A stretch of DNA of 54,792 nt, counting the filler, from Squatina squatina (lineage: Eukaryota), in the NCBI GenBank assembly GCA_031763465.1. It is 3 parts of 3 records of this genome, joined end to end, with 100 filler letters (N's around TTAATTAATTAA, not from the genome) between each part and the next. Parts side by side here need not be neighbours in the genome. Positions count along the whole stretch, not along the records: positions 13,573 to 41,717 come from JARFOE010000194.1; 2 more parts are not named here. The stretch is one strand, 5' to 3'. Under the pieces are notes generated by a model. It made no database searches and had not been told where the DNA came from. It worked only from the letters and a program-made list of their open reading frames with translations. Made by a program: the position numbers and the translations under genes. This document shows, in pieces, positions 24,106-50,861 of this stretch (position 1 is the first letter of the stretch; each line of letters starts with the position of its first letter).

Positions 24106-24200
24106 GGAACAGAAAGTTGTCACAATTTGTTTCATAACTGTTGTTTACCTAATCACAAGGCTGTCATCTGACTACTGAGAAGCTACAATATTGACCTTAC

Positions 24201-27600: not shown

Positions 27601-27904
27601 CTTAGTCAAGTGCTTATCGTTTAACTTTACATTATGGCTAAAAGAAGCTGTGGTTGCCTGACATTGACAAAGACATAAAATATCTCTGCAAGCAACACTT
27701 GTCCTTCACTTAATTGTCTTACATTTACATATTTAAATGATATTGTACACAAATTGTGTCTCTTTTGTTTTGCTTGATAAATGTACCCGAAATTATATCT
27801 ATCACATTAGTTTTCACTTTAGAAATTAGCCAGCAGACTAGGAAGAATAGATCCAGCTTTATTTATCCCTTATTGAGCTGGATAATTTTGTGAGAAACTG
27901 TATA

Positions 27905-28569
27905 TGGCCAAAACTTGCTGGAGCACGGAATCTCGTGGCTTACGCCATCAGTTAGACTTTTTCATGCACCCTTCAGCTCGAAAAAGTTTTGCACCGTAAC
28001 TTGCTGGAAGTGTAATCTGATGACGATGTGACAAAGGCAACAGGGCATCTGGGTCCTCAGTAAATGGCGGGTGAATTAGAATCAAATCAAAAAGAGAAGT
28101 AAAGAGAGGGAAAGAAAGGTTGGATTAAGAGAGAGTGAAAAATGAGAAAGGAAAAGTAATAAAATAAAATTAAAATTAGTAAATTTTTAAATCTCTAAAA
28201 AGAGTTTACTGCATGCAAGAATGAGACGGAACAGTTTAAATTGTTCCCTTTCTGGGCTAGAAAGGTCGATTGGCATTGAATTAACAACTATCACATTGTT
28301 TAAAGGATATTTGTGCTCTTAATTACCAGCCTTAACTTTCTGCAGTGAGTTTAATGGGAAATTAATGTGCAAATCCAGCTACTTCTTAAAAATAGTGGCG
28401 AGGTTAAAGGCGAGATGCCGTCTGTGTGAAACAGATGGCGAAGCGGCATAAATCGACTAAGTTCTGGAGACTTGCAACTCACAGCGTATTTCTTAATCCC
28501 CTGAACTTGTTGGTCAATTTGTGCATTATTCACAGCATGCGCCATTACTTTTCCAGCAAGATTTGGCCC
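27905..28569. mobile_element. Non-autonomous DNA transposon (~665 bp) with 17-bp terminal inverted repeats, possibly PIF/Harbinger-type
   Basis: ggccaaaacttgctgga (27906-27922) versus tccagcaagatttggcc (28552-28568): 16/17 inverted match. A subterminal repeat aacttgctgga lies near 27998; no transposase ORF. Confidence 0.65.
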
Positions 28570-31008
28570 TAGGTATCATATAACTGCAATGCTGCAAATA
28601 CTTCAAAGAGAATATATCACTTTTCTCTTTTTTGAATTAGACAGGCAAGTCCTGAAAAGCTCAGGCATGCCGTTCGCCTATTTGCATATCCACGCTTACA
28701 ATTTTAAGTTATCAAGCACAAGACTAACTAAAGCATAAGTCATTTGCTTGATTTATTTTGCTTATTCTTCATTCTTCATAGCACAAGTTCAGTATTGCCT
28801 TCCAGTACATTACTAATATTAATTGAATTGAATTGAAATAATTACCTCTCTAATTGAACATATAATTTGCAATTTTTCCACACGTCGGTAACATAATAAC
28901 GTTAATGCAAATTAATTTTCAATGAAGTCGCAACAGGGACATGAAGAGCTTTCCCCAGTGGACCCTGGACCAGGGTTCAACAATAACTGGGATCAGGAGC
29001 AGCTTAAACTCAGCATGCAGTGGGGAGCTTTAGTATTTAATCGCAGAAGCCAAGAGCTATACGTTTGTGATGATGGGTGAGGGTATGAAGGAAGGTTTTT
29101 TCAGCACTATAGTGTTTATATTGTAAGGTTAGATTTTATAGTTCGTACAATCCGCCTTTATATTCTAGCTAGCTGTGGGAATTTGAGATTAGGGTGGCTC
29201 TCCAGATTACTTGGTTTCCCGAATTATAAATGAAACTATATGTAAAAGTCTTGTGCTTGGGATGTGTTTTGTCTGTCACACTTCAGATATCACATTTGCA
29301 TGCAAATTTCTACGCCAAACTTGACCATGATTGGATCAAATTACATATTCCTATAACGGCAACAAATCACAGCTAGACATGTAGGGAAGGTACCAATGAA
29401 AAGGGGAAAACACAAACTATCAATCAAGCACTGCTAAGAACATATTAAAGGCTACCAATCAGGATGCACAGAAACTGCTAATCTAAATCAGTAGCAAGCA
29501 ATCAGCTGCCAATCAAATCAAGGAGAACATTCTCAATTTCAATCTGAGTGGAAAGTGACAGATTGATGGGGAAGAGCCAGAGGTCAATGAGGCTCTTTCA
29601 GTGGCTTAAACAAGTCAAAACAAAAAATAAATGCTCCTGCTAATGGAACAACGCTTTTAGAGAATGCAGGTGTGAGGGATTTTGATGTATAGTTTTGCTT
29701 TAGCAATGGCACAACTTTTTTTAAAAATTGCTTGTTTAAAAAAAACTCCAAAGCAGAGGAAACGACAAGAAATGAATGGAGAGGAGTAATTTTGCCAGAT
29801 CTTTTACTGAATGAATCTTAAAACATCATCAAACAAATCAGTTTGTTGGGCCAAGCCCAATTTTATAGATCCTGAACAGTTTGACACACCTGTGGAGGTA
29901 AAAATAAATGATCGTAGTTCTCCCAAGCGAAAATGCAATCATCCCTTCACCAACTCTTATAAGGAAAAGGAAAAAAAACGCAGAATAATGTTCCAAAAGA
30001 CATAAACGTAATTCCTTGCTCCAACAGAGGTACATACAGTGGATTTGAACTGTCCCACACTGATTTTATTTCATATTCAAGAGTAGAACTGTCATGAAAG
30101 TTCCTTCCATTGAATTCAGCACCAAGAGTCATTCTAATTTGGTTGATATGATATAAGTTGAGATGGGACTCTGGCATCATAAATAAATGATCACAACTGA
30201 GACGTAGTTACTCCATTGGTATATGTAGATTGTTATCAGATTTTTCAGAAGCCTTGTTTTACTTACTAACTATCTGTAGAGCTTTTCGATGGTTATGATA
30301 AAAATTATGTATTTTGTCTCGTTTTTTGTTTCATGGCTGCCCCTTTAAAACTCAATATTTGTGCAGTGTCTTTAATACAGTTAGAGCGAAGATTTCATGC
30401 CAGCCCTGTCCCAAAACATTGCTACAAGGTTTGTTGTTGTGTTAGACACCCTCTCAAGTCAGGGAGTCCACAANNNNNNNNNNTATATAGCACCTTTTAA
30501 TGTAGTAAAATGTCTTACTTTAATAACTTGAAGGCAGTTGTAATTTGTGATTCAGAGGCCTGTGACAGGTACTGGACTATCAATTCTGAGTTGCTCCTTC
30601 ATGCTCTTACTAGTGTACTCTTAATTGGGTTGTACCCAGCTTGAGTTGCTTCCCCAAACTGCTGATTTTTAAGTTGTAATACTTAGTGTGTATTGTGCAA
30701 GTTTCAGTTATTCCCATGACATGTTTATAGAAGTGCATTGTTTTTGGAAGGCAGATAATGACTTATTATCCATGGTTTCCGATACCTTCCTGCCTTCGAT
30801 GCTGAAGGTTAGTGTCTGAAGGACGTTTTGATCTGGTATCTCAGTTCTTCATCAGATGCATTTAGCAGTATCGAAAATGATCTGAAATGGTGTATGAAAA
30901 CTTCCTAANNNNNNNNNNNNNNNNNNNNNNNNNNNNNNNNNNNNNNNNNNNNNNNNNNNNNNNNNNNNNNNNNNNNNNNNNNNNNNNNNNNNNNNNNNNN
31001 NNNNNNNN

Positions 31009-31085
31009 GCCCCTGCACCATTCCTGCAGCCACTCGTTCAACTGTACACGCTCCTTATTCCGAGCCTCACCATCACGCGGCACCG
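31009..31085 (-). mobile_element. CR1-like LINE ORF1 esterase (SGNH) fragment
   Basis: VPRDGEARNKERVQLNEWLQEWCRG resembles the LNxWLxxWCR motif of CR1 ORF1 esterase domains. Cut off by a gap. Confidence 0.6.
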
Positions 31086-33189
31086 TTAATTAGAAAGAGA
31101 AGTGAAAGGGATGATGCCAACAAACCCTGCTGTGCTAAGGTTCCATCCACGTAACCTCCAGTGCAGTGCGTTTTCCTGTGAGGTTAATACCAGTCCCGTC
31201 TCCTCCATAAGGGAGGTATGCTCAAATCACAGATCGTAAGGCACTGCAGCTATGGCAAATGGCGTAAAAATAACATAAATGAAGTCAAGCAAGCTATGCC
31301 TATCTGTGGAACTGAAAGTTCAAAATGGCAGCAATACGCACTGACAGATTCTACAGATAGATGTGAAGGGGGACTTCTGAAAAGAAGTCATAATCCACTC
31401 TATTACAATCTAATCAGAATGCCGCTGATAATCAGAATACTACCAATCCACAGTTTGCCCTGACTTAGGCTTGTAACCACAGTGGCTTTGCTAATCGATC
31501 AAAACTCAGTGTTCTGCTACTAAGTAGAGGTTGCTCAGAACTGATACATCAATCCCTTATGCAACCAAGTGTCAACAGACATGTAACTGTTTTGCCAAGA
31601 AATGCTCTGCGTGTATCAGGAATTCTATAAATTCAGATAAAAATAACCAACGTCTGCATTCTTTGCCTTACAGCTCATTTAATCAAATATTCAACGGTTC
31701 AATCTAAATAAAAAGCAACAGAAACCACATAACAGAAAGATATTATACATACCAATCATTTAGCATTCTCACACATTCTCTGGCGAATACAGGAATGCAT
31801 TAATGATGTTTATTGTGCTGAACATTCTTAATCAAGGAATTGAGCAATACTTTTACACTTAGATCAGAAATTCTGTGCAATATAAGTGATTGAAAGTGGT
31901 TCGGTGCATTGAAATTCTTTGCCCTGATATGTGTTTATTTGGAGTGGACTGTGTACATGAAAAGTCCTCTGGAATTAAAAATACAATACTGTGAGGATGT
32001 ACCAAGGCCCATGGAACAGATGTCTCAATGGGTTCAGTACATTCAATGTAATGACAAGTAGAACAATGATGAAGGCTGAAAATCTGAAACAAAAACAGGA
32101 ACTGCTGTAAATGCACATCAGGTCTGAAAGAGAAAGATAGGGTTTTTTTTAACCAGTATTTTCCCGTACTCCCTTCCTGTTTTAAAGGCACTGGCTTATG
32201 CTGCTGTACAGTTCCACAGGTCCTGGGCAGCCTCTGTGATGTTGCCCATGTAGCCATTCCTGTGTCTCAGCCTAGACAGTGACTATCGCCAGGTTATTCA
32301 GGTAGAAGGCATCACAAAACTTGTTCCTGTTGTCACCCAATGGCCACACACTTGTGACTTCNNNNNNNNNNNNNNNNNNNNNNNNNNNNNNNNNNNNNNN
32401 NNNNNNNNNNNNNNNNNNNNNNNNNNNNNNNNNNNNNNNNNNNNNNNNNNNNNNNNNNNNNTGCATTGTTGAATGTGCTAAAAACGCAAGGATTTTTACT
32501 CCCATTTAACACATCGAGAACTTCACCTTGCTGTTAATATGTCAACACTTATGAAGGGGAATTAGGAACTAAGATAATAATCCATGCCAGCCTTTTCTAG
32601 TTGTTTTTACATTCTATCGTTGTACACTCTAGCATTGTGCTGAATGTTGCGATCTTAGTTCTATTTAATTTGTAAATAAACATTAGTAATCATTTATCTG
32701 AATCTAATTTCTGCTATTTCTGACCTATGATAAATGTAGCACAAAATTGGATTTGCCTGTAATTGCATATACAAGTTAGTGAAAATAGGATGGCTGTTGA
32801 CGCTTTGGATCATGCAACTTTAATGGGCAGATTACTGAAGGGACACAGCTTCCAAATCAAAGGGGACACAGTCCACTTCTGGGAACTGCTGTGAAATTGT
32901 TGAAAGAGAAATGGCTATATAAAATCCTGAAACTGTAGCACTCAGGTGTTGTTGATAGTGAATCGCTTCTGCATGGCGTGCTAAGAAAATACCAGGAATG
33001 AGAGGCTAAAAAGAGAAAGTCTTGACATTCGAGATTCTGTTACTGTGTTCTTGAACTAAAGCCAAGAAGTTTTTTATTTCTTAGGAGCATAGAAAATATA
33101 CACGACCAAATAAAAGACCATTGCAGTCCTTCTGACTGCTTGCAAAGTTCTAAAACATACTGCATGTTGTTTCTTATGCGTCACATTCA

Positions 33190-33290
33190 CTTTTGCCAAA
33201 ATATAATCTCGCTCCCTTGTGAATTTGCCAGCACTATTCACCCCCACTGTCTCCCTGGGCAGTCTGATCCACACATTCACCACCATGTGA
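33190..33290 (-). mobile_element. CR1-like LINE 3' ORF2 remnant
   Basis: VVNVWIRLPRETVGVNSAGKFTRERD corresponds to the CR1 terminal motif RVVxxWNxLPxxVVxAxSxxxFKxxLD. Confidence 0.55.
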
Positions 33291-34034
33291 AGTAGTTTAA
33301 TGTGAAGTTTATCTTTCTGAGTTTGAATCCTTTCCCCCCTGGTTACAAAGTTATGTCAGAACTGGAAAATATACCATATTGTTCTATCAGCACTTTTCAA
33401 CCAAATGGCTCAGCATTCAAGTATACTGATACTTCAGTTCACCAACAGCAGTTCTTAGCTGCTTTGTCCATCTCAACAAGGCTTCTGGATCATGTCCCTG
33501 GTGGAAATGGGGCAGGGCAAAATGGAGGGGACTGAGGGAAAGAAAATGCCAACACTCAACATCTTCAGAATACAATTCTATGATGGAGGTGTCCTAACAT
33601 GGGTTGTGGATATGTCAATGGACTGGGCCACATACCTCTTAGTTGAATGTGGCTCCCTTGAGGTAAGTATCCAGCTTGGAAAAGGTACAAGCTACAGTTA
33701 AAGCTCTTGCTGTGTTCTTTCAAATTGGATGTATGCTTCCTTTTGGGGAGAAAAGAAACTGCAAACTGACTTTGGCAGCAGTGTGGTAAATAAGGCGTAG
33801 TCGCAGCCTCTGGGTGTTTAGACATGAAGAGACGGTTTTCATGAACAGCTCCAGAAGTAGCACCGATGAAGACAGTCAACTTTATGTTTAAAGCTGCCAG
33901 TGGACTGAGGGCTCAGCTCGCCTGTACAGACAAACATTACTGTTTTATATTTGATGATCTGTAAATACCTTCCTGGAACACAGGGAAAGCTATGGCAGCC
34001 AGAAACAACACAAAAAATACAACTCTCGACACTT

Positions 34035-34490
34035 GTATGCATCAGTTTGGTTTAGTTAGCAGCACTCTCACATCTGAGCCAAAAGGCTGTGGGTTCAGGA
34101 CCCACTCCAGAGATTTGAGCACAGAATCTGGACTGACACTTCAGTGCAATACCGATGGAGTGCTGCACTGTTGGAGGTGCTGTCTTTGGGCTGAGAGTTT
34201 TAACCTCACTTGCCTGTTCAGGTAGACATGAAATTTCCCACATCGATGGAAGAGCAGGGAGTTCTTCCAGTGTCCTGGACAACATCCCTCCCTCAATTAA
34301 CACCACCAAATACAAATGATCTGGTTATTCATTTGATATTTCTGGGGTATTACTGTGTACAAATTGGCTCCTGTATTTGCATGCTCAACAACAGCGACCA
34401 TACGTCAAATATAATCCATTGGTTGTAAATCACTCTGGGATGCACGCAGGATGGAATAAGATGCTATAGCAATGCCGTTTCTTTCTTTGT
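34035..34490 (+). mobile_element. Near full-length DeuSINE (SacSINE1-like)
   Basis: tRNA-like head (agcactctcacatctgagccaaaaggctgtgggttcag...cccactccagaga), Deu core (gtgtcctggacaacatccctccctcaa...gatctggttattcatt) and tail (cattggttgtaaatcactctggga...gctatagcaatgccgtttctttctt). Confidence 0.8.
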
Positions 34491-34539
34491 ATTGTGCATT
34501 GGAACATGGGAACAGTGACATTAAAGTTGAAACAGCAGT

Positions 34540-34850
34540 AACTTGCTCTTATATAGCTCTTTTAACATTAACAGAAAACATCCCAAGTGCTTCACACATA
34601 CGTGCATTGGAGGTTTTTGAAAGGAGAGAGAGCAGTGCAGAGGCTTAGGGAGGGAAGTTGAGACAGCAAGGTTTAAATGACTGAAGACGTTGCCACCAAA
34701 GGGAGGGGGATCCACTAATGGCCAAAATCAGAGGAATGGAGTGGGGAGGGAGAGGGATATTGAGCAAAAGGAGTTTACAGAGACTGGAGGGATTTGAGGA
34801 CCAGGGCGCTGAGTTTCAATTTATATTGTTGGGGACAGAGATCCAATGCA
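34540..34850 (-). mobile_element. L2-like LINE 3' end
   Basis: acttgctcttatatagctcttttaacattaacagaaaacatcccaagtgcttcaca is the reverse complement of the tail shared with the DeuSINE, followed by L2-type purine-rich sequence. Confidence 0.6.
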
Positions 34851-36004
34851 AGGCTGAGTATTTTTCTGTTGTGCTGGTGCTGTGGAATCTGTCCCCTGTT
34901 AAAAACAGGATGGAGCCCAGAGAGCTCAGACTCTCCAGTGTTATTGCACAATGGCTTCAAGATGTTTCTGCCATGTGAGCTGTGCTGTGATTAAAGAGGC
35001 AGTATCTTCACAGAAAGGTATTTGACTAACCTTTTATTGCTGGTTAACACAGGATGCAATAATTGAGCCAAAATTCATCATAACGTCACGTTACNNNNNN
35101 NNNNNNNNNNNNNNNNNNNNNNNNNNNNNNNNNNNNNNNNNNNNNNNNNNNNNNNNNNNNNNNNNNNNNNNNNNNNNNNNNNNNNNNNNNNNNNGAACTA
35201 TTAGAATAGTAAAAGGTCACACAACTTGGAAGAAATTATACCATATTTTACTGGGTGAATGTTGTCTGGTACATTTCTTTAACAAAATGACAGAATAAAG
35301 CAGCTGGCCACTCCACACCGAGTGCATGGAAGTTTTACAAATAGTGGATTAACTCCCCACAGTGTGACATGCCAGGAAATGCGATTTCTCAGAACTCTGA
35401 TCATTCATACTTGGAGCCGGTCCAGTCTCTCGTCACAATGAGCGCCATTGCTGCAGGCTAAACATTAAAAGCAGAAATTGTAAATCTAGGTCATCGAGAG
35501 GAACAAAGCTTGTCATAAACAGGAAGCACTGTTCAGAGCTGGCAGTCAGGAAACTTTGCAGATGATCAAATGAAAAATGTTAAATGTTTACTCTAGCCAC
35601 ACTGATCGACATAACATAACTGGAAAATATTGTTGCAGTTTATAATTAATGTTGACAGGGAAGATCGTAATTACATACTAGCAACTAAATGTTATTGTAA
35701 TGCTTATAGAATAATTACTTTCATTTTAAATTACAGTTTTCCATCTCAGTGAAAGAGGTGCAAAAGAGTGAGCATGAAGAGCACCACAATTTGACTATCT
35801 GCATCACTTACAAGCTCAATTTTATTTCCCAATCACAGAGGACAGATTCAAAAAAATACAAACGTTGATCTGGACTATTGCAATATGAACTCCGGAGGAT
35901 GTACAGGCTACATTCGTGTCACAGATATTGTAACCTCCCTCCCAAAATGGAGGAAAAAATGCAAAGGAGGTCCTGCCATTATTACCCGCATTTCAAACGA
36001 ACAT

Positions 36005-36114
36005 AAGGACCTAAGTCCAGATCCAGGGGTCACACTCTGAGGATAAGGGGGAAGCCATTTAGGACGGAGATGAGGAAAAACTTTTTCACCCAGAGAGTGG
36101 TGAACCTGTGGAAC
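36005..36114 (+). mobile_element. CR1 LINE 3' ORF2 fragment
   Basis: aggggtcacactctgaggataagggggaagccatttaggacggagatgaggaaaaactttttcacccagagagtggtgaacctgtggaac encodes RGHTLRIRGKPFRTEMRKNFFTQRVVNLWN. Confidence 0.85.
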
Positions 36115-36214
36115 NNNNNNNNNNNNNNNNNNNNNNNNNNNNNNNNNNNNNNNNNNNNNNNNNNNNNNNNNNNNNNNNNNNNNNNNNNNNNNNNNNNNNN
36201 NNNNNNNNNNNNNN

Positions 36215-36850
36215 GGGGATTGCGGGAGAGGTAAGATTACAATTGCAAAGCAACAGTGCATTGCAGGAATTTAAAAAGAAAGGGAAGATTGTAGGTGCAG
36301 CAGTGTTTGGAAAGTTGGAAAGATTGAGAGTGTGATGCGAGGAGAGAGGATAATGGCTGCCATTTTGAAAGAAGTAAGGACCGAGCTGGAGAAAAGGGAC
36401 AGATTGATGAGGATATGGTTCTGAAAATGGGAAGTTGAGTGATCAAGGATTGCTAGGGGAGGAAATTGAGGAAATAGGTGATAGGCTTAAAGGACAAAAT
36501 ACTTTTTGTGATGGTGGGAGTGAAACTGTGAAACAAGCAGTAGTGGATGATCAGATTGAGAAGTGGTTTGGGCAATAGACCTGGGAGAAGGATGTCCTAA
36601 TTTTGAACACAGAAATCCATGAGCCTCTCAGAGTGAAGATGGAGGGAACTGAAAGAGGTAGCCACAGGAAGCAGTTCATAGTTTATTATTAAGAAGGGAA
36701 ATTAGAAATTTAGACTTGGTCTTGCTCTCCAGGTTGACCTTGGTGCTAAGATAACCTGGTCATGGAAAGGAGCCATGGATGAGCTTGAGATGGTCAAGCC
36801 ATTCTTGAAGATGGATAGCTAAGCTGGTGCATTTGAGATTTCAGCCTGCC
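36215..36850 (-). mobile_element. Old L2-like LINE remnant
   Basis: Strong purine skew on the plus strand and scattered L2-like motifs. No intact ORF; boundaries approximate. Confidence 0.4.
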
Positions 36851-36901
36851 TGATTACAGGTTGTATATGTTGTGGATAAAGGTAAAAAGGTTCAATTGGA
36901 G

Positions 36902-37758
36902 TTAAGTGAACTCTGCAATTGTGTTGTATCTTGACTGATTGTTTGTTGCTATTACATTTCTTAAGCACTGCCAGAAAAAACCTTCAGTATTAGGGTTTTT
37001 AGGCCAGTATAGCACAGAGCTGCTACATAATCGCTTCCTCAATCTCAGATACTTTGAGTTAATTAAAACAGGCTCTAACAGGATCAGTACAATCACAGCT
37101 TCATTTTCATCCAGTAGTCTTTGGTGAGCCATATAAAAGGCTGTTTTGAAAGTTCCTCTCTTGACATAACTCCTTGTGAGCACAAACACAGTCTTTTTGC
37201 TCTTCTGTACACTTTGAGAAAGATTGTCGACAACAGCCATTCCTAACCCCCAGTCTCTCTCTTCCAAACAGAGGCAAAAGTGCCTTTCACCTTTAACTTC
37301 CAAATGAACTAATAGTTCATTGACAACCCAGTCTGTCACAGCCAGATCCGAAGTGTCATAAGCAATAAATGCATCGTAGGAACAGCTCTGCATTGTAAGA
37401 GATTGATACTGATACCCCTTTACCTTAGCAGAGCAGAAATAGTAAAAGTAGCGCACATCCCAGTAAAAAAGCTGACTGGTAACCGCTGTCACCATGACAC
37501 ACAAAACAATTAGAAAGGAAATGAAGTACAATGAGGCAGCGAGGCCATTCACTGCACACAAGTGCTGATCAAGTGAAATGATACTCTTTCCGTGAAGCTG
37601 TTTCGGTTCAGCACAGGAGACGTCTGTGGCGATTCGAGGGATAATCACGTCACATGAATTAATCCACACAATGAACGGCAAAAGTTCACAAGTGCATTGA
37701 AATGGATTTCTTGTTAAAAGCAATACTTCTAAATAATTTGGTGCACCAACTTGGAAAA
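36902..37758 (-). CDS. TLR8: TLR8-like paralogue B: last LRR, LRR-CT, transmembrane and TIR domains; 5' part lost in gap
   Basis: NPFQCTC...C...C LRR-CT, hydrophobic TM LYFISFLIVLCVMVTAV, TIR box1 YDAFIAY, LCLEERDW, box3 FFWQCLRN, stop TAA at 36902-36904. VTDWVVNEL, FKTAFY, LLEPVL, YLRLR and EGFFW are TLR8-type rather than TLR7-type. Confidence 0.88.
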
Positions 37759-37858
37759 NNNNNNNNNNNNNNNNNNNNNNNNNNNNNNNNNNNNNNNNNN
37801 NNNNNNNNNNNNNNNNNNNNNNNNNNNNNNNNNNNNNNNNNNNNNNNNNNNNNNNNNN

Positions 37859-40289
37859 TAACATCAGTGGCCAATTGAGGAATATCCAGGTCACAAGTAT
37901 TAATCCATGCAATAAATGGTGCAAGTTCACAAGTGCAATAAAATGGATTCCCTTTTAGAACCAGTACTTCTAGGAAAAGTTGTTCGCTTGCTGGGAAAAC
38001 TGTCTGGTTTAACACTTTAATTTTGTTATTGCTTAAATCAAGATATTTTATTCTGTTTGCTGTTGTAAGGAAGCTTACAGGAAGTTCAGAAATTCTATTT
38101 CTTCGCAGTAAGAGTTTTTGGAGCGATTTGATGTTATTAGACAGATTATCGGGGGCAATGGCTAATTTATTGTTACTCAGATCTAAGGTGAGCAGATTCT
38201 TCAATAATTCTAGTTTATCCCAATTAAATATGTCTAAACTGTTATGGCTCAAAGACAAATATGACAGGTTATGTGGTAAATTTCCATAAACATCAGATGG
38301 GATGCGTTTAAGTTGATTGTAAGATAAATCAAGATATGTTAAATTAGTTAGATTTTTGAACAAGTTTATATATCTGCAGTCCTCCTCATTCCATAAGATA
38401 TCCATGCGATTCCCTTTAAATTCCAAAACTTCCAATGAGTCACTGTTCAATTCTGACTCAGTCAAGGTGAAGATGGCATTGTTGCTTAGGTTTAACACTT
38501 TCAAATATTTCAGGTTTTCAATAAAGCCCATTTTGTGTGTGACACCCTCAACAATAAAATAGTGCTTGTTGTAACTTAAATCCAGTACTTCCAGTTGTTT
38601 CAGTTCTTTAAAAGCATTATTATAAGCTGGATCAATGCAATTATAAGAAAGGTCCAAGTATTTCAGATTGGGGACGTTGATGAATTCAGTGCCATTGAAA
38701 GCCTGCCCGATTGCATTTGATGACAAATTCAGACACCTTATTTCCTCAAAGCCTTCAAACTGCTTTGGGTTGATGAAAAAAATGCTGTTTCGGCTCAAGT
38801 CCAATGTCTTCCCATAAGAGCAGCATTTCCTTTGCACTGAAGATACAAGTGCATAGTCTTTGTCTCGATACCCATCTCCCACTCCATTTGTTTCAGTTAC
38901 TGACCCTATACCTTTTAAATTTCTCTGTACAAAGTCGGCCGGACTGTTTGAGTCGACACTGTAACCAAGGGGGCTTGCGCTCTCCGATTGAGGTGCGATC
39001 CTATTCTCAGAGAGATACAGAACCTGTAATGATGTGAAATTTCTGAACATGCTTAAGTTTGACTGTCTGATGAAGTTTGTATTGAGGTTGAGGAGAGTGA
39101 GATTACGGAGACTGAATAATGGTTTTAGTTGCTGTTCCTCAATGTTTTGGAAAACACAACATTGAAGGAGTAATGTTTTCAGAGAAACCAATTTGGAGAA
39201 ATTACTTGAAAGATTCATATATTTGGGGTATGTTTGATGGAAGTAATTGTATGACAAGTCAAGCTCCTCCAGTTTGGGTAAATGGTTTAAAAAGTCTCCA
39301 GTCGCAATTTCGTGTATCAAATAATTCCATCTAAGTTCCAGAACTTTTAAGCTAGTTAAGTTCTGAAACCAGCTGCTCAGTATTTTAGAGAGGGAATTAC
39401 CAGAAAGTTGGAGAGTGTGTACATTTTTAAGGTGTTGAAAAGCACGGGGATGTATGTGAATGGAGTCACCTCCAGGGCACGGTTCACATGGGTAAGGATC
39501 ATTATAACATCTGGGGCAGTTTCCATTTAAGTCAAGGAACTCCAGATCAACCAGATGACTGAAATCATCTTGGTTTATAATTTGAATCTTGTTTCCACGG
39601 AGACATAGAAACCTCAAAGTTTCTGGCAGGTTACGAGGAACAGAAGTTAAATTGTTTGAGCCAAGTGTGAGAACCTTCAGTTTTTCACCACTTGAAAATG
39701 CCCCGTCCTCTATATGGATAGACACATTGCAGGGGTTGTGCTGGTAACAGTTTTGTGACAAGTGAAGTGTTTCTATGTTTGTCAGGTTTGGCAGGTTTTC
39801 TTTTGTTATATTTAGAATCTTACTGCCATTGAGGCTGAGCAGTTGTAAACTAAATGGCAGTGTCTTTGGGATTTGGCAGAGGTGGTTTCCATCCAGGTAT
39901 AATTCTTGTAGTTTTGTCAGGGAGGAGAAGCTGCCTTCTGCAATAGTCATGCCCTTCATATACGGATTCAATGCAATGCTTCCAGGTACATGGTTACAAC
40001 TCAAATCTAGTTTGGTTAGGTTTGGTAAATTGGAGAAGGAGTAATTAGAAATATTTGTGATCCAGTTATCTGCCAGATTTAGACTGGTTGCATTAAAAGG
40101 AATGTTTCCTGGTACGCTTCTTAGGCGGCGGCTTCTACAGTCTAGTTGGATGGAGGAGGCATTGTTCCGAACACTCACATCACATGGGAGGCTTCTGGGA
40201 ATCCAGCTGGTTGCAAGCAGTTTTACAACAAAGTTGAGTAGAAAGAGGAAGCACAGTAAAGTCAGTGCTGGAGCTAATGTTGCTTTTGC
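37859..40289 (-). CDS. TLR8: TLR8-like paralogue A: signal peptide and full LRR ectodomain; TM/TIR lost in gap
   Basis: The open frame extends 111 nt beyond the ORF-track start, to a tag| acceptor at 40290-40292, giving AKATLAPALTLLCFLFLLNFVVKLLATSWIPRSLPCDV. GNCPRCYNxPxPC, NYLIHEIATGDFL, YLSENRI, HYFIVEGVTH and DILWNEED are TLR7/8-family motifs, closer to TLR8. Confidence 0.9.
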
Positions 40290-40460: not shown

Positions 40461-40626
40461 TCACTAATGTCCTTTAGGGAAGGGAATCTGTCATCCTTAC
40501 CTGGTCTGGCCTATATGTGACTCCAGACCCACAGCAAAGTGGTTGACTCTTATCTGCCCTCTAGGGATGCGCAATAAATGTTGGCCTTGCCAGTGATGCC
40601 CACATCCCAGGAACTAATTTTAAAAA
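40461..40626 (+). mobile_element. 3' half of a shark-type SINE
   Basis: tcactaatgtcctttagggaagggaatctg...ctggtctggcctatatgtgactccagacccacagcaa..gtggttgactctt...caataaatgttggccttgccagtgatgcccacatccca with an A/T-rich end. I recognise this as a common chondrichthyan repeat. Confidence 0.7.
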
Positions 40627-40918
40627 GCCCAGGCATCAAGACTAGTTTCAGTAACCCAGTACAGCACATTTTCTTCTGGAAACAAAGTTATGAAGTGAAA
40701 AATAAAATTCAGTTCAAAATATCTAAAATAGTTAAGTTTTCATGCCTTCAACTTGCAAGTATGGATGTAATTTATACAGTTTGACACAGCAAGTTTGACT
40801 CTTTCAAGCTGGGCCTGGTTAACTGTAGTATTCCAGTAAATAATGATGGGTTCCTCAGAAATGGAGCAGAGCACTTGTTCAGTCCAGAACAATGCAACAA
40901 AGCTGAAATTTCATCACC

Positions 40919-41038
<120 letters not shown>

Positions 41039-41099
41039 TCAGTGCATTCAATGCACTACTCATTCTTTCAAGTGAAAGAAAAACAAAGATCATTTTTAC

Positions 41100-41259
41100 C
41101 TGAACTTTTGAGGAAATCTTCATTTTTTCTTCTTGTGGAATGGTGTTTGTTACAACAACAGCTTCAAAAGCAGCATTGTTTATTCGGCTAATGGCAGGGC
41201 CGGAGAAGATACCGTGAGTAAGGATAGCATAAACTTTGGTAGCACCAGCACACAGCAAT
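41100..41259 (-). CDS. PRPS2: PRPS2 penultimate coding exon (160 nt)
   Basis: Long polypyrimidine tract, cag| acceptor and |gtaaaa donor. Translates [58 protein letters not shown] and NNAAFE plus adjacency to TLR8 indicate PRPS2 rather than PRPS1. Confidence 0.94.
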
Positions 41260-41717
41260 CTGAACAAAGAAAAAAAAAAGGCAAAAAATTATAGTAACTA
41301 TACATTAAGATACTGCAAACATAATCCTTAAAATAAAAATTCTCTTTATACATCTAAAAAGTTTAACAAGTTGATGCTCACAGTGGCATTTTTGCATTGT
41401 TTCACCAGGTATCAAAATGTAAAAACAATGCTGCACTTGCTTTGAGGCATTGAACAGCAAAAGGTGATTTTTATTCTCACCTTCGCTTCTACCCAGAGTA
41501 GCATGATGTCAGAGGCAGCCAAATAGTCACCAGTGGGCTGATCATAAGAAAGCACTCCAACTAGAGCAGAAAAGTGGCTTTGTAAATACTGATCTGGAAG
41601 GACTCCGCAGTCTAATGTTTGATCATTACCGGAATGACCTGCAAACTCTACTTATGCTTTTTAAAACTTTCTAAACGAGGTATCCAATCAAACTAGCCTT
41701 TTTTAAAAAAAAACATT

Positions 41718-41817
41718 NNNNNNNNNNNNNNNNNNNNNNNNNNNNNNNNNNNNNNNNNNNNTTAATTAATTAANNNNNNNNNNNNNNNNNNNNNNNNNNN
41801 NNNNNNNNNNNNNNNNN
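41718..41817. other. Artificial assembly linker N44-TTAATTAATTAA-N44
   Basis: Same exact structure as 13473-13572. Confidence 0.92.
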
Positions 41818-43342
41818 TGCAATACCAGTAACAATTCTTCCAGGCTGATTTGCAATGCTAAAGCCACAGTATAGTTCATGTTATACTGTGAGTAGTGAGA
41901 AGATGTCAAATTTGATAATTATACCTTAACTCAGACCTTGCTGCTGAAAACACCTAACAAATAATTTATGTCACATTGCATTCAACCCTTAGGAGGCCTA
42001 CTTAATATTTGTAAGATTAACTTGCTATTGATACGATCACTAAATAATAATAAAGGCATGAAACGTTTGCATTTTTTACAGGAAAACTACAGTGATTAGA
42101 CTGTGAGATTAGGTTTAGGATTTTCAAGGAAAAATAAATGATAAGATTGGTTTCCTTATTCAAAATTATGCAAAAAACTTCACTTTATGTAATGAAATTA
42201 CAAATGCTGAGAACAATTTTCCCTTTGCTGAGCAGTAATAGGTTTGCTGATAGAATCTTTTGCAAATAAAAAAAAAAAATGTTGCTTTAATTTTACTCAT
42301 CAGGGCCGATGCTGGGGAATGGAACATAAATCCCACTTTTTGTACCCAGTATTAATATCTCAATTCCAACTTGAAAAAAGCACCCTGTACTATAGCAGGG
42401 TGATATTTTCCAATAAAGTTGTATTTGTGGCCTCTCTGAGGGCCCATCAATTTTTTACTATGGAATTGCATGTTCCAGGGCTGAAACTTCCCGAACTCGT
42501 TTCACCTCAGGATCTTAGAGCTGACAGACAAAAGACATTCTTTCCTCGTAAACCTAAGTTCTAGAGGCGAATGAACTCTGTTCCAGTGCAATATGTCACC
42601 CTGTGTTGGTGGAAATAATGGGGCTGATAATACAATAACAGGCACCTGAAGCACTGGTGTTAGCTCCCTATGTTATCAGATGCAAAGCCCTGAGGCCTAC
42701 TTTGTGCCTGATAGACATAACATACCACAATGCAACCCTGAAGTGCTTTGAGTGCACAGACTGTACAAGGCTCATGTAATCCACAATTTTACTTTAATGA
42801 GCAGTACTCCCCATAATACAAGCAGTGCCTGATAGCCTACAGTAGAACAGCATTCTCAAATAGAAAGGATCACCATTTGATCAACATATAGGTGGTCTGG
42901 AACCACTGGAACTGAATCACACAAGTGAATGCACATTACCTTGACCGCTTTTATGATATGATGATCTTGCAACAGTCAATTAATGTCTGTCTTCTTTGAC
43001 AAGCTAATGCTCCACAAATGGCTTTTGGGGGCATCAAGAATATACCCTATGTGTCTTATGGCACCAATGCAGCACTCAGGACAAGAGCTGAAGAGAGTTA
43101 CAATGTGGTTCATGCATCTACATTGTGGAGCTGGCATTCTGAAACATTGACCCCAATCTTTACTCGAGCAGGATTTCCAAACAGGGGTGGTGGGGGGTGG
43201 GGGAGGAGCTCTATCAAGTCAAGATTCCCCAAGTTTTATCTCCATAACGTGCGTGTTTATTTTTTAAACAGGCTCCCCGTCCGAAAGCCAGCCTGATTGA
43301 CAGGCTTGACTCCCTGTTGGGTGGGAATGTTCCTGAAGAGGC

Positions 43343-43488
43343 TACATGAATATCCCCATGCTCATTGATGGCGGAGCCCAGCACGTGAGTGCAAAAGACA
43401 AGGCTGAAGTGTTTGCAATCATCTTCAGCCAGAAGTGCCAAGTGGATGATCCATATCGGTCTCCTCCTGAGGTCCCCATCATCACAGA
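43343..43488 (+). mobile_element. LINE ORF2 fragment (region between endonuclease and RT)
   Basis: NIPMLIDGGAQHVSAKDKAEVFAIIFSQKCQVDDP resembles the KAExFxxxFS motif of CR1/L2-group ORF2. Cut off by a gap. Confidence 0.65.
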
Positions 43489-44094
43489 NNNNNNNNNNNN
43501 NNNNNNNNNNNNNNNNNNNNNNNNNNNNNNNNNNNNNNNNNNNNNNNNNNNNNNNNNNNNNNNNNNNNNNNNNNNNNNNNNNNNNNNNCAGACCCATGCC
43601 TGCACCCTGGGCTACCTATCCCTTTGCTTTTGCCTGTTGTTTCTTCATCTTTTGCCTCTTTAGCCTTGGCAAAGGCTGCAAATGGATTGGATACTCTTTG
43701 AGGCTTTTCAAAGGCTTTCAGAATTTTTGTTATTCTATTGTGACAATCCCCTTTAATTGTCCCCATCCACTTAAACTTCACTTAATTGCAAGTTTCTGCC
43801 CTCACCAGTAGTGTGCTTCCTTCACTCATCCAAATCTAAATGTAGATCTGTGAACAATTATGCAAATGACCTGGCCCATGAAATGTCAGTGCTATTATCA
43901 CATTAGCATTCTGATAAGATTCACATCAGTTCTTAACCATTTGGAACTGACATACATATTGGACAAAAACTGGCCTTCGAGGTTTTACTAGAACTTTCCT
44001 AATTGTATCCTCAAACACTGAAGAAGACCAAGTGAAGACCTGGCACAAGTCCCCAGTTTAGAGCATTTCCTTAAAACTTGTTTTCACAATATAA

Positions 44095-44252
44095 GGGGTG
44101 AATTTCTGCAGGGATTTTGCCTGATTACTCACTGTAACTTCAACAGAAGTTCAGGTAAAATGGCATAAATGGTCATTTGTCCAGGATTTCCACGGCTCCT
44201 CCATCAAAGTTCAGGTAGAAGAGCCAGAAACCCCCCCACAGAAGTTCATCTC
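44095..44252. mobile_element. Hairpin MITE-like element (~160 bp)
   Basis: ggggtgaatttctgcaggg at the left end versus ccccacagaagttcatctc at the right end (about 14/19 inverted match). Internal direct repeat aagttcaggta occurs twice. Confidence 0.5.
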
Positions 44253-45372
44253 CCATGAGAACGTTGAGATCTTAAGTTGTATTGGAGAAAAGACGACTGA
44301 CACAGAAACTGCAGAGACAAGTGGATATGTGCACATTGTTGAAGCGGTGACTCCTCATAGATCTCACTGAAAAGACAAAAAATAAAAATTGTTTTATTTT
44401 GATTAGCATTGAAATTTGTTCTTTGCATGCACTTTGATAGCAGTTATTACTAGACTCATTCATAGGTTCCAGCAGTACATCATCTGGCAATAAAGGGGAC
44501 TGGTATTTCCATGTCAAAGCTTTGTCAATTTATCTTCTGGAAGCAAAATAAAAATAAAAAAAAAACAGAGATGCATAATGACATGTTAGGCAGAACATCA
44601 CTTACAGTTGGCTAGTCACAATCGTCAAGGTTCAGTTCCATTTAGCTTTGTGTTGGTGAAAGAACTTTTCATTTGGGGATATGTGAAGCATTCTACCACT
44701 GCTGCCTGCCCCCAGGCTACCCCTGAGTGCCAGTCTTGTCACTGGGTTTCTTATCTGATGCTCTGTTGAAATTAACTGCATATGCTGGCTGGCCTAAGCA
44801 TTAGAGACAGGCTTTAAATCAAGCATTTACCAACAGTTAACATATCCAAAATGTCACCAAGCCCAATGCCTTCACTTTTAACTCTTTCAGTGATGACATT
44901 GCTTTCTATATCTTGGTGGAAAAGTATGTGCTACATCTCAATTCACTCCCTGAATATAAATCCAGTATTATAAATAATAGATTAATATTGCACTGGATAT
45001 ATTGATTATTATTCCATTATTAAAATAAATAGAAAGCATCCTTTTCTGGTGTAGGTAAAGGGCCTCCGTTGTTCCATGGGAAACTTACAAACTAACCTTT
45101 TTACTAATGCTGATTTCAAAACACACAGCTTTTAGCTATCTTTTCTAGTGGGAGTAAAAGGGGTGGGGGGTGGGTGAAATTGGCCGCTGTCCGAAATTGG
45201 GTTAACACCTACTTAAGGCGTTAATGGGGCGCTAAACATTCTTAAGGCATTAAATCGTTATTTAGTGNNNNNNNNNNNNNNNNNNNNNNNNNNNNNNNNN
45301 NNNNNNNNNNNNNNNNNNNNNNNNNNNNNNNNNNNNNNNNNNNNNNNNNNNNNNNNNNNNNNNNNNNGATCT

Positions 45373-46660
45373 ATACCTGTAAATGTCCCATGGCGTGCAT
45401 TATCCATGGTACTTGAAGTGTATTGGAGGCAACTGTGTTGATACACAATTTGCATCATAACATGCCATGGCATTGGAAAAGTGCCATTGCGTCATTTACG
45501 TGTAACGTGATTGTGATGGAGACACGTACTTTCACTTTGGCTGCTCTCGTCCCTGTTGACTGCCACTTTGAAACTTCTAATCCACTTACTATATATCAGA
45601 ATGCAATAATACTTCTGTTAAAATGAAATTACGACCTGCATGTAATGAAACTGTTCCTTTGTTTAGTCCGTGAGGAAAAATGAAATGCAGTTCAGTTAGA
45701 GATGGAAATTGTTGCCTCCAGTGCACTTCAAGTACCGTGGGTAATGCATGCCATGGGACATTTACAGATATGTATAAAATATGTGCAGTGCCTGGAATTA
45801 AATATTGGAATGTGAAATTGGTATAATGTAAAAATTAGGTCTATGTGCCATAACTAGAATATTTTGCTTTTTTTTTGCTGATGTTAAATCTTGTACAATA
45901 TTTAATGTGCATTGAATTCTTACTCTTAGTAATGAAAAGCAGTTTCTTGGTAATTCATTGACGCAACAGTCTGTAGATGTTTGACTAAATTTGCAATGTT
46001 TGAAGTTTCAGCAATAACATTCCAACCACGTTGGTGGTTCCCAGTGGTAGGCGTTTTGTTCTTGATATTTAAAAGTAAATTTGAAATTTTGTAAATTGTT
46101 TTACAAATGCTTGTACAGTCATTCTGGTGAATTTAGCTTTCTGCTGTGGGTCTGCAACGGATGCCATTTTCCTTTGTCTACAACTTGAATGGAATGGGAG
46201 AAAAGTAATTTGAATAGATCAGGTTGCTTTCTCCCAGAAACTACAGCAGCAATGTTTAACAGTTACAACCAGCTTCTGATTTGATGTTTTTAAAAACTAT
46301 TATGGCATCATTTGTGCTGCCACAGTGTGCGATTCAATAGGTATTGTTGGTTGAATTTTTCCAATCAACAAATCTGTCAAAAGTGCCTTTCGGCCTGAAA
46401 CCTGGAAGATGTTCATCTTTAATAGTCAACTTTTATCTGTATGTTTTCCTGACTGTGTGCATTTTTACATTATTATACCAATTTCACATTCCAATATTTA
46501 ATTCCAGGCACTGCACTTTTTTTATACATACCCGTAAATGTCCCATGGCATGCATTATCCACGGTACTTGAAGTGCACTGGAGGCAACAATTTCCATCTA
46601 TAGCTGAACTACATTCCATTTTTCCTCACGGACTAAACAAAGGAACAGTTTCATTACATG
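45373..46660. repeat. Nested long inverted-repeat element (foldback/DNA-transposon-like)
   Basis: A 61-bp motif at 45373-45433 is inverted at 45711-45771 (6 mismatches). Independently, 45639-45835 is inverted at 46461-46660 (~200-bp arms), and the right arm runs into a 613-N gap. Confidence 0.88.
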
Positions 46661-49544
46661 NNNNNNNNNNNNNNNNNNNNNNNNNNNNNNNNNNNNNNNN
46701 NNNNNNNNNNNNNNNNNNNNNNNNNNNNNNNNNNNNNNNNNNNNNNNNNNNNNNNNNNNNNNNNNNNNNNNNNNNNNNNNNNNNNNNNNNNNNNNNNNNN
46801 NNNNNNNNNNNNNNNNNNNNNNNNNNNNNNNNNNNNNNNNNNNNNNNNNNNNNNNNNNNNNNNNNNNNNNNNNNNNNNNNNNNNNNNNNNNNNNNNNNNN
46901 NNNNNNNNNNNNNNNNNNNNNNNNNNNNNNNNNNNNNNNNNNNNNNNNNNNNNNNNNNNNNNNNNNNNNNNNNNNNNNNNNNNNNNNNNNNNNNNNNNNN
47001 NNNNNNNNNNNNNNNNNNNNNNNNNNNNNNNNNNNNNNNNNNNNNNNNNNNNNNNNNNNNNNNNNNNNNNNNNNNNNNNNNNNNNNNNNNNNNNNNNNNN
47101 NNNNNNNNNNNNNNNNNNNNNNNNNNNNNNNNNNNNNNNNNNNNNNNNNNNNNNNNNNNNNNNNNNNNNNNNNNNNNNNNNNNNNNNNNNNNNNNNNNNN
47201 NNNNNNNNNNNNNNNNNNNNNNNNNNNNNNNNNNNNNNNNNNNNNNNNNNNNNNNNNNNNNNNNNNNNNNNNNTATATGAGCAAGCTTTTATTCCTGATG
47301 TTCTTTGCACTTCTTTCTCACACTTGCATCCATGTCAACTTTATCAGGAGCAAAGAACTGAAGTCAATGGAAAGGATAAAATGGGCAGGGTGTTTAACAG
47401 GTGGTCAATCAGCTAACGACTTGGCAACCCTCCTGCTTTTCCCTACACTGGGGGAAGTGAAAATCAGGCGGGGCCTATAATGGCTGACCAATTCAATATC
47501 TCCCATTTTGCACCATTGCCCAAAATTAAAATGTTGGAAACATACAGATGCTGACTGACTGACTGGGCCTTTCTATTATTATTTTCTTTTTGTTTTAGCG
47601 GTAAAGAATATATCTGTTTTTTGCAGTCACAATTTGTCTGAATTTAGGGAAAGATAAATTCAGTCTTCTGATCTCAGGAAACAGCAGCCTTAAAAAGGCA
47701 TTAAATGCAGAGAAACCGCTCCCAGACCAGTAAGGAATAACGCGGTACAGGCATAGCCCCTTAAGCTTCTAGGGAAATTGATACTAAATGTATCACCTTC
47801 ACAATTCAACAAGTTGCCCAGATTAGCTGTACAAAACTGCATAAAAATAAGTTAAAATAATTGCTAAGTTAAATAATTCCATTTTAATGCATTACAAATT
47901 TGTACAGAGAAACATGGAAAGTATAAAAATGTAAAATGTTTTAGTTATGCCATTGTCAATATTGCATTATACATGCACAGATTGTGTAGAAACCAGCAAA
48001 ATGCCCCACTGTGGAAACATATGCCATCCATAATTTGGATTTTTAAAATGATCTGAATTGGTTAAATTAGGATTGATTTGGGGATTGTATCCAGCATGCA
48101 CCAAACACAGCCTGTGAATGCTTTTCCCTTTAAGCCCTCGTGGCTGCCTCTAACTAAAATCAGAAAGTGCTGGAAATACACAGCAGGTATGTTAGCTTTA
48201 AAGAAAAAGATAATTTATCCTATTGGGAGTAGACCCTCAGGTGTTGGCCCCAATTGCTATGAATCTTTTCTAAGTCAGAAAGGGGTGGGGAAGATGGTCA
48301 CAGATTGTTCTAAAGTCACTATGAACACCATTCTGATTGAAACTCCTAAAAACCATGAAGGAGTGGTCCCATCACCACAAACTGACCCAACTAGTAGACT
48401 GTCAAACTTGCCGAATGAAGGAAGATAAATCTGAACGCCAGTTAAGGTTGGTGCTTGATCTTATCACCTTCTAGCTAAAAATTGAAACCTCCAATTTGCT
48501 TAGTTTGCCATTCTTGGGATATAATTTTTTAAAAAGCTAGTCGTTAATTTGCTCAACCTTTCATTACTGCTATTGCACAGAAACCCTTAAATATAAACCA
48601 CATAATTAAATTCAAACCTTGTAAAATTGTCTTTGGTTTAGGGCAGAGAACAGAAACAAATTATAGAAAAGCAGGTTCTTCTTGAAGTTTTTTAAAAAAT
48701 TAATAAAAATATGAACTTTTCCCTGACTTAATAAATTCTTTAGTAAATCTACACTGGACACACAGCCTTTGTTCTGTATTTTTTTCCGTATGGCTTTTAC
48801 ATGAGAAAGAAATTAATTGCAGTGCTAAACTCTAAAAAAAATTTAAATTCACAAAAATCAAGAAGCTAAAAAAAAAGCTGATTTATCTTACATTGGTCGG
48901 ACTCCCTTCAAAAGATGACCTTGAAATATAATCACCCTAATGAGCCAAAATATTCACTTTCACGAATGAAACAGTAATCAAATCAGTTTCAAAAAGCACC
49001 ATTAATGAGCTTTCCCTTTGATTGGGACACGTCCTGATATATTAATCTACAGGAGGTACGTTCTAGCTGAGACCACCCCATGCCAGCTCATTAGCTGACC
49101 TAGCAAGAGACTAATTTGAATGTTTTTGATAAAAATTTCAAGGAATTTTCACTTCAGCAGGGTTTCAGCCAATACCAGCAACTTCTATACAAGTAAATTG
49201 TACTTTTTGTAAAGTTAATTAGTAGATATTGATGATCATTGCACTGAAAAATAGGCATGAAGTATCTCTAAAAGCAACTCCACCTTAATATAATCATAAA
49301 TGTACTGAATGGTACTTTTTATTTTCAAACTGCTTTTTTGATAGATGTATTTATTTTACAAATAACTATTTGAGACTGCTATCTGATTAGAGCAAGACAG
49401 AACTATCAGAGCAACTTTCACTGGGATCGGCCAGACAGAAAGCAATCGGCACTGAACTTTTTCAGTACTATACATTTTTATGTTGCTACTTTCAGCTACT
49501 TGCTATTCCATGACCAGCAAAAACGGAGGTTAAATTTTACTCTT

Positions 49545-49920
49545 CAAAGAAGACTGAGGGGTGACCGAATAGAGGTCTTTATAATTATGAAAGGTTTTGA
49601 TAGAGTGGATGCAGAGAGAATGTTTCCACTTGAAGAGCATAACTAGAGCCATCAATATAAGATAGTCACCAAGAAGTCCAATAGGGAATGCAGGAGAAAC
49701 ATCTTTACCCAAAGAGTGATGAGAATGTGGAACTTGCTACCACAGGGAGTGGTTGAAGCGAATAGATTGATGCATGTAAGGGATAAGGCAATAGAGGATT
49801 ATGCTGATTGATTTATATGAGGAAAGATGGAGGAAGCTCGAGTGGAGCATAAACGCTGACTTGGACTTGTTGGGCTGAATGGCCTGTTTCTGCGTTGTAT
49901 ACACTATGTAATCCTATGAG
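49545..49920 (+). mobile_element. CR1 LINE 3' end with tail
   Basis: ctgaggggtgaccgaatagaggtctttataattatgaaaggttttgatagagtgg...tttacccaaagagtgatgagaatgtggaac...gggctgaatggcctgtttctgcgttgta...ctatgtaatcctatg. Confidence 0.88.
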
Positions 49921-50861
49921 ATTGAGGCCAGTGTTCGAAGCAAATCTGCCAAGAAATTAGTTTTTCATATTGGATTTGTTATGGAATTAGATGTCTGCGC
50001 TTTTGGTGGCCTGATCATTTTGTCCACTGAATGTTTTTGGCTAATAATGAAGCATGTGTGACATTCCAGTTGGGTTGATAACAACCACCAAGCTGCTTGG
50101 ATGGGCGATAATACTTCACTGCACTAATACAATTATGTTCATGTATGCTCTGATAAATCTGAATCTTTCATCTGACAGTTGGAATGCCAAAATGTGGTAG
50201 CAGCTTACTACTTGAGGCAATTCCTCAGGCACAATTATGCTGCCAAACCTTGTGCTTGGTATTCCTAGTGAAGAGCTAGCTTGAATGCAAATTAAGTGGT
50301 GGCCAAAGGTGACAATTGATGAATTTTTAAGTGCTTTCAAGTAATTGTGCATGTTCAAGTTTCAATAAAGTTTGAGGTGTTTACAAAATACATGGATTTT
50401 GTTAGATTTTAACAAAACTTATAAAGTTCTCAGCTGAAATAGTAGAAATCTGATATCACTACAAGGTTATCATGCGTGTGAATTGTCTTCGTATAATATA
50501 GCATTTTGAATTATTTCTACACTCTTCTATCCGTAACCTTTGAGGTAGAAAACAGCAATTCTGTGAGCTTTGTTCTCACATAGGCTGAATCTTGACTCCC
50601 AAAGAATTTCTCTTACTCCCTCAAGACACCTACCTGCTCTTGTAGGCTTTGGCCTTGTGAAACCGGTTTCCTGCCCGAAAGGCCTCCAGCCTGCCAATCA
50701 GGCTGCCTGTGAGTGGGAACCCCACTTGAAAGAGCACGGCAGTTGAATTCTGCAGGGCATTCGGGTACCTGTACTTCCGGGCTTCCCGACCTCACAGCAG
50801 CACCCCCGCACAGAACTTGCCTCCAGGCTAAAATCCAGGCCTCAGTGCCGAGGTTCACACA

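Follow-up and report, generated by a model that had tools for sequence, protein, structure and literature searches.

The window, by which we mean the whole stretch of 54,792 nucleotides that was analysed (Squatina squatina, assembly GCA_031763465.1), holds pieces of TLR8 on both sides of a gap. The contig on the right of the gap carries an 810-codon open LRR frame, and the contig on the left a 284-codon open frame with an LRR-CT cap, a transmembrane (TM) helix as well as a TIR domain, both on the minus strand. The LRRs and the TIR have Pfam matches, the TM helix was placed by alignment, and each gene is partial in the window. The AG of what is likely a splice acceptor has its end at 40290, 5' of the N-terminal piece on the minus strand, and the single-copy 3' flank runs on to 36215. 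Further downstream and on the same strand lie a frame with a calcium-binding EGF exon (24172–24414, from a motif scan and the list of ORFs), a TFIIS_M-domain gene (17333–18376, Pfam PF07500) and a Rab GTPase (15076–15681, Pfam Ras family and translation). We take these synteny markers to be EGFL6, TCEANC and RAB9A, presumably the expected neighbours of TLR8, in the human order. TLR7, thymosin beta and any further TLR piece were looked for in the window with tblastn and motif scans, and none was found.

The LRR-CT is present twice: copy A lies at 37860–37973 and copy B at 37619–37732, both on the minus strand. They share 27 of 38 amino acids and 86 of 114 nucleotides, their codons differing by 9 synonymous and 11 non-synonymous changes. 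The repeat extends over 139 nucleotides up to the gap (37620–37758 versus 37861–37999, 73% identity), and the similarity is well above chance (tblastn E 3e-13, blastn E 4e-17). The coordinates, strand and identity of the 38-codon segment reported in the preliminary description are thus confirmed, as is its statement that the two caps are too divergent to be alleles or the overlap of two contigs. The gap itself (37759–37858) is a scaffold placeholder whose length does not give its true size, since 28 of the 39 N-runs that cut the window into 40 pieces (median 1.1 kb), this one included, measure exactly 100 N. Taken together, the TLR8 pieces amount to the length of one TLR8 plus about 140 nucleotides, so that their adjacency in the scaffold is uninformative about gene order.

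The best full-length matches of the pieces are elasmobranch TLR8 proteins. We compared them with the sawshark (Pristiophorus), for which UniRef lists a TLR7 and, distinct from it, a pair of proteins under the name TLR8; we call the canonical one a (UPI00398EC31C) and the divergent one b (UPI00398F30D0). Depending on the segment, the window is 82–98% identical to one or the other. The cap region of copy A is 95% identical to sawshark a and 65% to sawshark b, while the part of copy B from cap to TM is 90% identical to sawshark b and 53% to sawshark a. Each cap thus goes with its own sawshark orthologue, which bears out the earlier claim that two diverged TLR8 paralogues are present. When the b-specific region was used to look for more b-type proteins, sawshark b was the only one among the 120 listed of 180 matches. 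A single gene with an internally duplicated LRR-CT would agree with pieces that are collinear and overlap by just about 140 nucleotides; the two orthologues (95% and 90%), together with the relatives' contigs described below, which have one cap apiece, make it the least probable of the readings considered here.

That one piece might be TLR7 or TLR9, or come from a second individual or species, deserves attention since TLR7 adjoins TLR8 according to a March 2026 preprint (10.64898/2026.03.23.713620) and yet is absent from the window; moreover, placing b at the base of all TLR8 was not rejected (p 0.056). On the contrary, all segments of the window fall on the TLR8 side of a branch separating them from TLR7 (support 100/98–100), and the b-type segments (middle and late) are sister to sawshark UPI00398F30D0 (100/100). 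A grouping of b with the TLR7 of sharks and chimaeras is rejected (p 3e-56), in trees from which TLR9 was left out, and the reading that neither cap is TLR7 stands; against solved structures, the middle segment scores 350 bits with TLR8, 300 with TLR7 and 217 with TLR9, and the pieces are highly identical to proteins that bear the name TLR8. The sawshark has a TLR7 apart from both of its TLR8, and both types occur together in all four sequencing runs of relatives that gave contigs. A TLR7, TLR9 or foreign piece is therefore highly improbable.

To assign each part of the two contigs, we used as diagnostic sites the positions where the canonical elasmobranch TLR8 consensus differs from sawshark b. 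The right frame begins with an a-type N-terminus (39930–40289, minus strand, as are all the segments that follow), which comprises the signal peptide, the LRR-NT and the first LRRs and has 19 a and 0 b sites over amino acids 1–120. It continues with an N-terminal LRR tract at 39450–39929 (amino acids 121–280), in which a and b are near-alike, so that its five diagnostic sites (4 b, 1 a) permit no firm assignment; we regard it as a candidate gene-conversion tract. The middle of the ectodomain (38619–39449, amino acids 281–557), about LRR9–17 in a numbering inferred from human TLR8, with the Z-loop and most of the first-site ligand residues, is of b type, with 25 b sites, 4 a sites and 10 sites that match neither. 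After an interval of 17 codons that has no diagnostic site (38568–38618, between the last b site at amino acid 557 and the first a sites at 575–576), the sequence is again of a type through the late LRRs and copy A of the cap (37860–38567, amino acids 575–810, 52 a and 0 b sites, 89% identity to sawshark a).

Across the gap, the left frame starts with the b-type last LRR, copy B of the cap, the TM helix and the juxtamembrane part (37421–37758, amino acids 1–112, 31 b and 2 a sites). Then comes a TIR core (37067–37420, amino acids 113–230, 8 a and 2 b sites), which has a Pfam TIR match, is common to both paralogues, carries a Leu in place of the BB-loop Pro and, on the basis of the trees and of the merged contigs described below, is a putative gene-conversion tract. 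The frame ends with an a-type TIR C-terminus and the stop codon (36902–37066, amino acids 231–284, 10 a and 0 b sites), where amino acids 241–280 are identical to sawshark a at 40 of 40 positions.

Both contigs are therefore mosaics: the right one runs a–shared–b–a up to the gap, and the left one continues beyond it as b–shared–a. The difference between the middle and the late block is large (Fisher p 5e-17), the block limits having been picked after viewing the data, which makes the p-values optimistic. In a control set of 11 canonical proteins no b block is seen; the maximum found in the middle segment is 4 b against 32 a sites. Segment trees agree, since they pair the middle of the window with sawshark b as sisters (100/100) and place the window's late LRRs inside the canonical clade. 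The frames stay open and stop-free across the changes of type, three of the four of which fall in shared tracts or at the gap.

The preliminary description had proposed that the ectodomain of gene A lies on the right and the end of gene B on the left, in tandem, their missing halves being hidden in the gap. That different caps flank the gap and that squalomorphs are known to have two copies speak for it, but the split into a copy A ectodomain and a copy B TIR does not hold, because each contig changes type internally, from b to a on the left and from a through a shared tract to b and back to a on the right. In addition, the gap is a standard 100-N placeholder, and tblastn found no other TLR piece in the window. 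The genes may well be neighbours, but not with these limits, and the arrangement as proposed is very unlikely.

The reads of other animals are informative in this respect. Among the 12 sequencing runs listed, none is from the species itself (best word share 0.08) and none holds RNA data; Logan contigs were obtained from four of them (X1, X4, X6 and X9), which represent four organisms and three studies and are diverged by about 7–11%. Types a and b co-occur in all four. X1, X4 and X6, which come from two studies, each contain two parallel contigs of about 1.9 kb that share 37353 as starting point and extend as far as 39498 or 39507; no contig spans both genes. The b contig follows the window over 37353–37758, has 387 letters of its own, and resumes at 38387 to run through the window's b middle to 39498 or 39507. 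The a contig covers 37353–37494 at the start of the TIR, has 122–123 letters of its own, continues from 37859 to 38777 or 38789 (copy A together with the late LRRs of a type), then carries some 490–500 more letters of its own, and fits poorly again from 39277. Position 37758 in copy B corresponds to 37999 in copy A, and therefore the 387 and 123 letters are the lengths expected of two collinear genes with one cap each. The b middle of the window joins copy B, not copy A, in these three runs of four, and in those organisms the one-cap contigs exclude an internal duplication of the cap. The contigs of X9 break at 38730–38759 and give no phasing of a and b.

These relatives hold two separate, collinear TLR8 genes, and in their TIR and N-terminal LRR tracts a and b merge into single contigs. 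Both parallel contigs overlap one shared contig by 30 bases at 37353. The depth of the single 315-bp contig at 37068–37382 is close to the sum of its two branches (15.9 versus 8.1 + 9.8 in X1, 34.9 versus 18.7 + 17.4 in X6), and the single contig at 39481–39776 in X4 has a depth of 18.9, versus 12.6 and 8.8; contig depth is no copy number, and merging is indicated more strongly by the end points in common and by the overlaps of 30 bases.

We consider that the window most probably represents two TLR8 genes with gene-converted tracts that were collapsed into a mosaic by short-read assembly, a reading to which we give a probability of nearly 80%. In this scenario the animal, by similarity a shark of squalomorph type, would have two intact paralogues, a canonical a and a divergent b, each of which, taken singly, would be a normal TLR8 with one LRR-CT. 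Conversion between them would keep them near-identical in the N-terminal LRRs and the TIR core, and short islands shared by a and b would lie near 38570–38760. Where two genes have a few hundred identical bases, a short-read graph would represent them by one node, and if one branch of each divergent stretch were lost, the assembler would cross from one gene to the other while the frame stays open. The scaffolder would then set the two contigs side by side, leaving the LRR-CT as the sole stretch present twice. The two genes are likely to be linked in the genome, because gene conversion favours neighbours.

The competing view is that the mosaics are real, conversion or unequal crossing-over having produced a TLR8a with the ligand-binding middle of b, a fusion of a b ectodomain with an a tail, or both. 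The open frames across the switches would be expected of real recombinants, recombination too happens in tracts of identity, the preprint (10.64898/2026.03.23.713620) detects it in all TLR genes, and one of the four runs, X9, does not phase the region. However, at least three independent switches would be needed, and they would have to sum to exactly one gene length; a simple deletion cannot yield both a-to-b and b-to-a joins; a and b are pure over 37353–39498 in three of the four runs of relatives; and the b block is missing from all 11 canonical proteins. Real mosaics are thus unlikely, and the type switches in the window are better read as assembly errors than as recombinants.

The duplication of TLR8 is itself already known, from the sawshark pair in UniRef and from the preprint, according to which two functional copies of TLR8 are present in every squalomorph and in part of the galeoid sharks (10.64898/2026.03.23.713620), and which also names pseudogenes in galeoids; in the whale shark, one TLR8 is listed (PMC8455134). 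The pair in the window resembles those squalomorph and galeoid pairs in that there are two copies. The trees of the preprint are based on the TIR only, whereas we used segments across the whole protein, and its main text does not contain the terms "gene conversion", "concerted" or "chimer", although its supplements may hold synteny or more. It gives identities of 77–87% between copies, to be compared with our sawshark values of 83% in the TIR (130/157), 71% overall (638/901) and 58% from the late LRRs to the TM (174/302). In that last region sawshark a shares more with other species than with sawshark b, namely 238 of 302 residues with sawfish TLR8 and 198 of 302 with chimaera TLR8. What appears to be unreported is that the second copy may be old, partly homogenised and altered in its ligand pocket.

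To estimate the age of b, the four unshared segments were combined (mixture model, protein data of 15 public sequences, no TLR9). Here b is sister to the chimaera and all canonical elasmobranch TLR8; a duplication restricted to squalomorphs is rejected (p 0.0002), as is a duplication after the shark–ray split (AU p = 0.0024). This data set does not reject a duplication later than the chimaera split (p 0.139; 0.056 in another test). The late segment alone argues against a recent duplication (p 0.0004 and 0.0145), while the middle segment by itself does not reject it when the mixture model is used (p 0.055 and 0.083). In the unshared segments b holds the ancestral residue at 7 of 14 sites that are derived in canonical elasmobranch TLR8, and at 0 of 8 in the shared tracts. 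The evidence thus suggests that, outside the shared tracts, b branches before the shark–ray split, which is apparently unreported; this age rests on one full-length b sequence, whose long stem could be pulled basally. Most trees used 15–31 of the 58 aligned public proteins.

The shared tracts give another picture. Within the TIR core, sawshark a groups with sawshark b as its sister (91/81, 83/88), and the old topology is rejected with p 0.027; for the N-terminal tract, where b is nested among sharks, that topology is not rejected (p 0.15). We infer that gene conversion caused these tracts, the criterion, namely that paralogues be closer than orthologues within the tract, having been judged on protein trees. 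Sawshark a and b are identical at 134 of 157 positions in the N-terminal tract and at only 94 of 106 in the TIR core, so that conversion in the latter would be older or incomplete. Gene conversion of elasmobranch TLR8 was not found in the literature searched, which left most subscription journals outside.

A similar situation is described in mammals, where TLR1 and TLR6 have divergent ligand-binding LRRs and a homogenised TIR tract (PMC2077338), as shark a and b do. In TLR1/TLR6 the tract is one block that includes LRR16–19, the cap, the TM and the TIR, according to the same source, whereas the cap and TM of the shark genes stay divergent and a second tract lies in their N-terminal LRRs. Unlike TLR1 and TLR6, a and b are endosomal receptors of the TLR7 family.

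With respect to function, residues were mapped onto human TLR8 through the PDB alignment (3w3g, 6zjz). The shark proteins resemble human TLR8, which is single-copy, in architecture and core first-site residues; they differ in that the chondrichthyan TLR8 shown have Ala at 520 and 545 and Leu in the BB loop, and b adds further pocket changes. Residues Y348, F405, V520, D543 and T574 are critical in human TLR8 (PMC7336380), and four of these five are kept in a and b, position 520 being Ala in all 14 chondrichthyan TLR8 rows shown, the window included. The equivalents of Y348, Y353, V378, F405, R429 and D543 are kept in b, and that of T574 in sawshark b. The human-equivalent positions 376 and 541 are Cys in both b sequences, and Gly and Arg in all 12 canonical chondrichthyan rows shown; sawshark b has Thr at 572. 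Gly376 and Gly572 are agonist contacts in the human protein (PMC7336380). To judge from these residues, b has an altered pocket that probably still accepts a nucleoside-like ligand. Both copies may be endosomal sensors of ssRNA or nucleosides with interchangeable TIR domains, and b probably either prefers other ligands than a does or serves as a partner that modulates a. Grass carp also has two copies, tlr8a and tlr8b, and its TLR8b modulates TLR8a by heterodimerisation (PMC13455349), which is a possible model for shark b. The two duplications are independent, since shark b belongs to the chondrichthyan clade (SH-aLRT 97) and teleost tlr8b falls among ray-finned fish. A quick-search tree of all 58 proteins led to the rejection of shark b as an orthologue of teleost tlr8b or of the turtle and amphibian duplicates.

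A broader scenario can be put forward tentatively, with slightly less than even odds. Two TLR8 lineages would predate the split between sharks and rays, perhaps also that of the chimaeras, TLR8b having been kept in squalomorphs and lost or decayed elsewhere, and its age would be masked in TIR trees by recurring conversion of the TIR and the N-terminal LRRs. The pocket of b would have been rebuilt, with new Cys at the equivalents of human 376 and 541, on faces that come together in the active dimer, and b would sense another ligand or tune TLR8a; both copies would signal through a BB loop that has no proline, possibly not via MyD88. If this is true, an old TLR8b with a swapped-in signalling domain would imply, for the history of vertebrate RNA sensors, one early duplication followed by several losses, not recent lineage-specific gains, and TIR-only trees would misdate converted paralogues.

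Whatever the age of b, the "TLR8" of this window is most likely a chimera that no frameshift or stop betrays, which would mislead annotation, selection scans and structure models. The earlier warning that automated annotation would fuse the two paralogues is well founded, and the same trap may exist in other short-read shark assemblies.

Last, at the proline position of the BB loop the window has Leu, as do 18 of 18 chondrichthyan TLR8 proteins, and 39 of the 40 other rows have Pro. The Pro-Gly motif of this loop is more than 90% conserved in TLR7/8/9 (PMC7075850). Its proline is linked to MyD88 binding, a carp TLR that has no proline recruits TRIF, and the carp TLR8 copies keep it (PMC13455349), whereas the shark copies do not. 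The substitution was not found in the literature searched, a search with the same limits as above. Its presence in every cartilaginous-fish TLR8 examined raises the question of the adaptor; the idea that the Leu marks copy B as a decoy or a pseudogene was rejected on the same ground. The sequences describe a lineage-wide trait, which would bear on signalling and not on orthology.

The TLR8 TIR domain in the window (P0002, the cap/TM/TIR frame on the minus strand) carries a leucine in place of the BB-loop proline, at residue 171 (positions 37244–37246). In an alignment of public proteins, this leucine is present in every chondrichthyan TLR8 (18/18), including that of chimaera, and the proline is retained in chondrichthyan TLR7 and in bony-vertebrate TLR8. 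The leucine is also seen in one paddlefish protein labelled TLR7.

The b-type (divergent) TLR8 paralogue has acquired cysteines at human-equivalent positions 376 and 541, on LRR faces that come together where the active dimer binds its ligand. The b-type sites fall at 39162–39167 and 38637–38639 of the window (the region of residues 375–377, and residue 551, of the LRR frame P0001). These cysteines may form an inter-chain disulphide.

Four public proteins labelled "toll-like receptor 7", from Hemiscyllium (P0016), Stegostoma (P0019), Mustelus (P0025) and Rhincodon (P0123), appear to be misnamed, since they cluster with TLR8 in trees. The 1371-residue TLR8 of Heptranchias (P0006) begins with about 350 unrelated residues, which probably result from a gene-model fusion. 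Searches of public proteins returned no second Heptranchias TLR8, whereas all squalomorphs have two copies according to a preprint (bioRxiv 10.64898/2026.03.23.713620).

Neither a thymosin-beta motif nor TLR7 was found by tblastn and motif scans of positions 18400–36900 and 40461–54792. Thymosin beta and TLR7 are usual neighbours of TLR8; either parts of the scaffold are missing, or TLR7 is located outside the window.

Elsewhere in the window, a 200-nt inverted repeat (45639–45835 and 46461–46660, 94% identity), which adjoins a 613-N gap and has a third, partial copy at 45373–45433, is probably a transposon remnant. An identical 12-base AT-only spacer, each time flanked by two 44-N runs, occurs at 13517–13528 and 41762–41773, and is probably an assembly or masking artefact.
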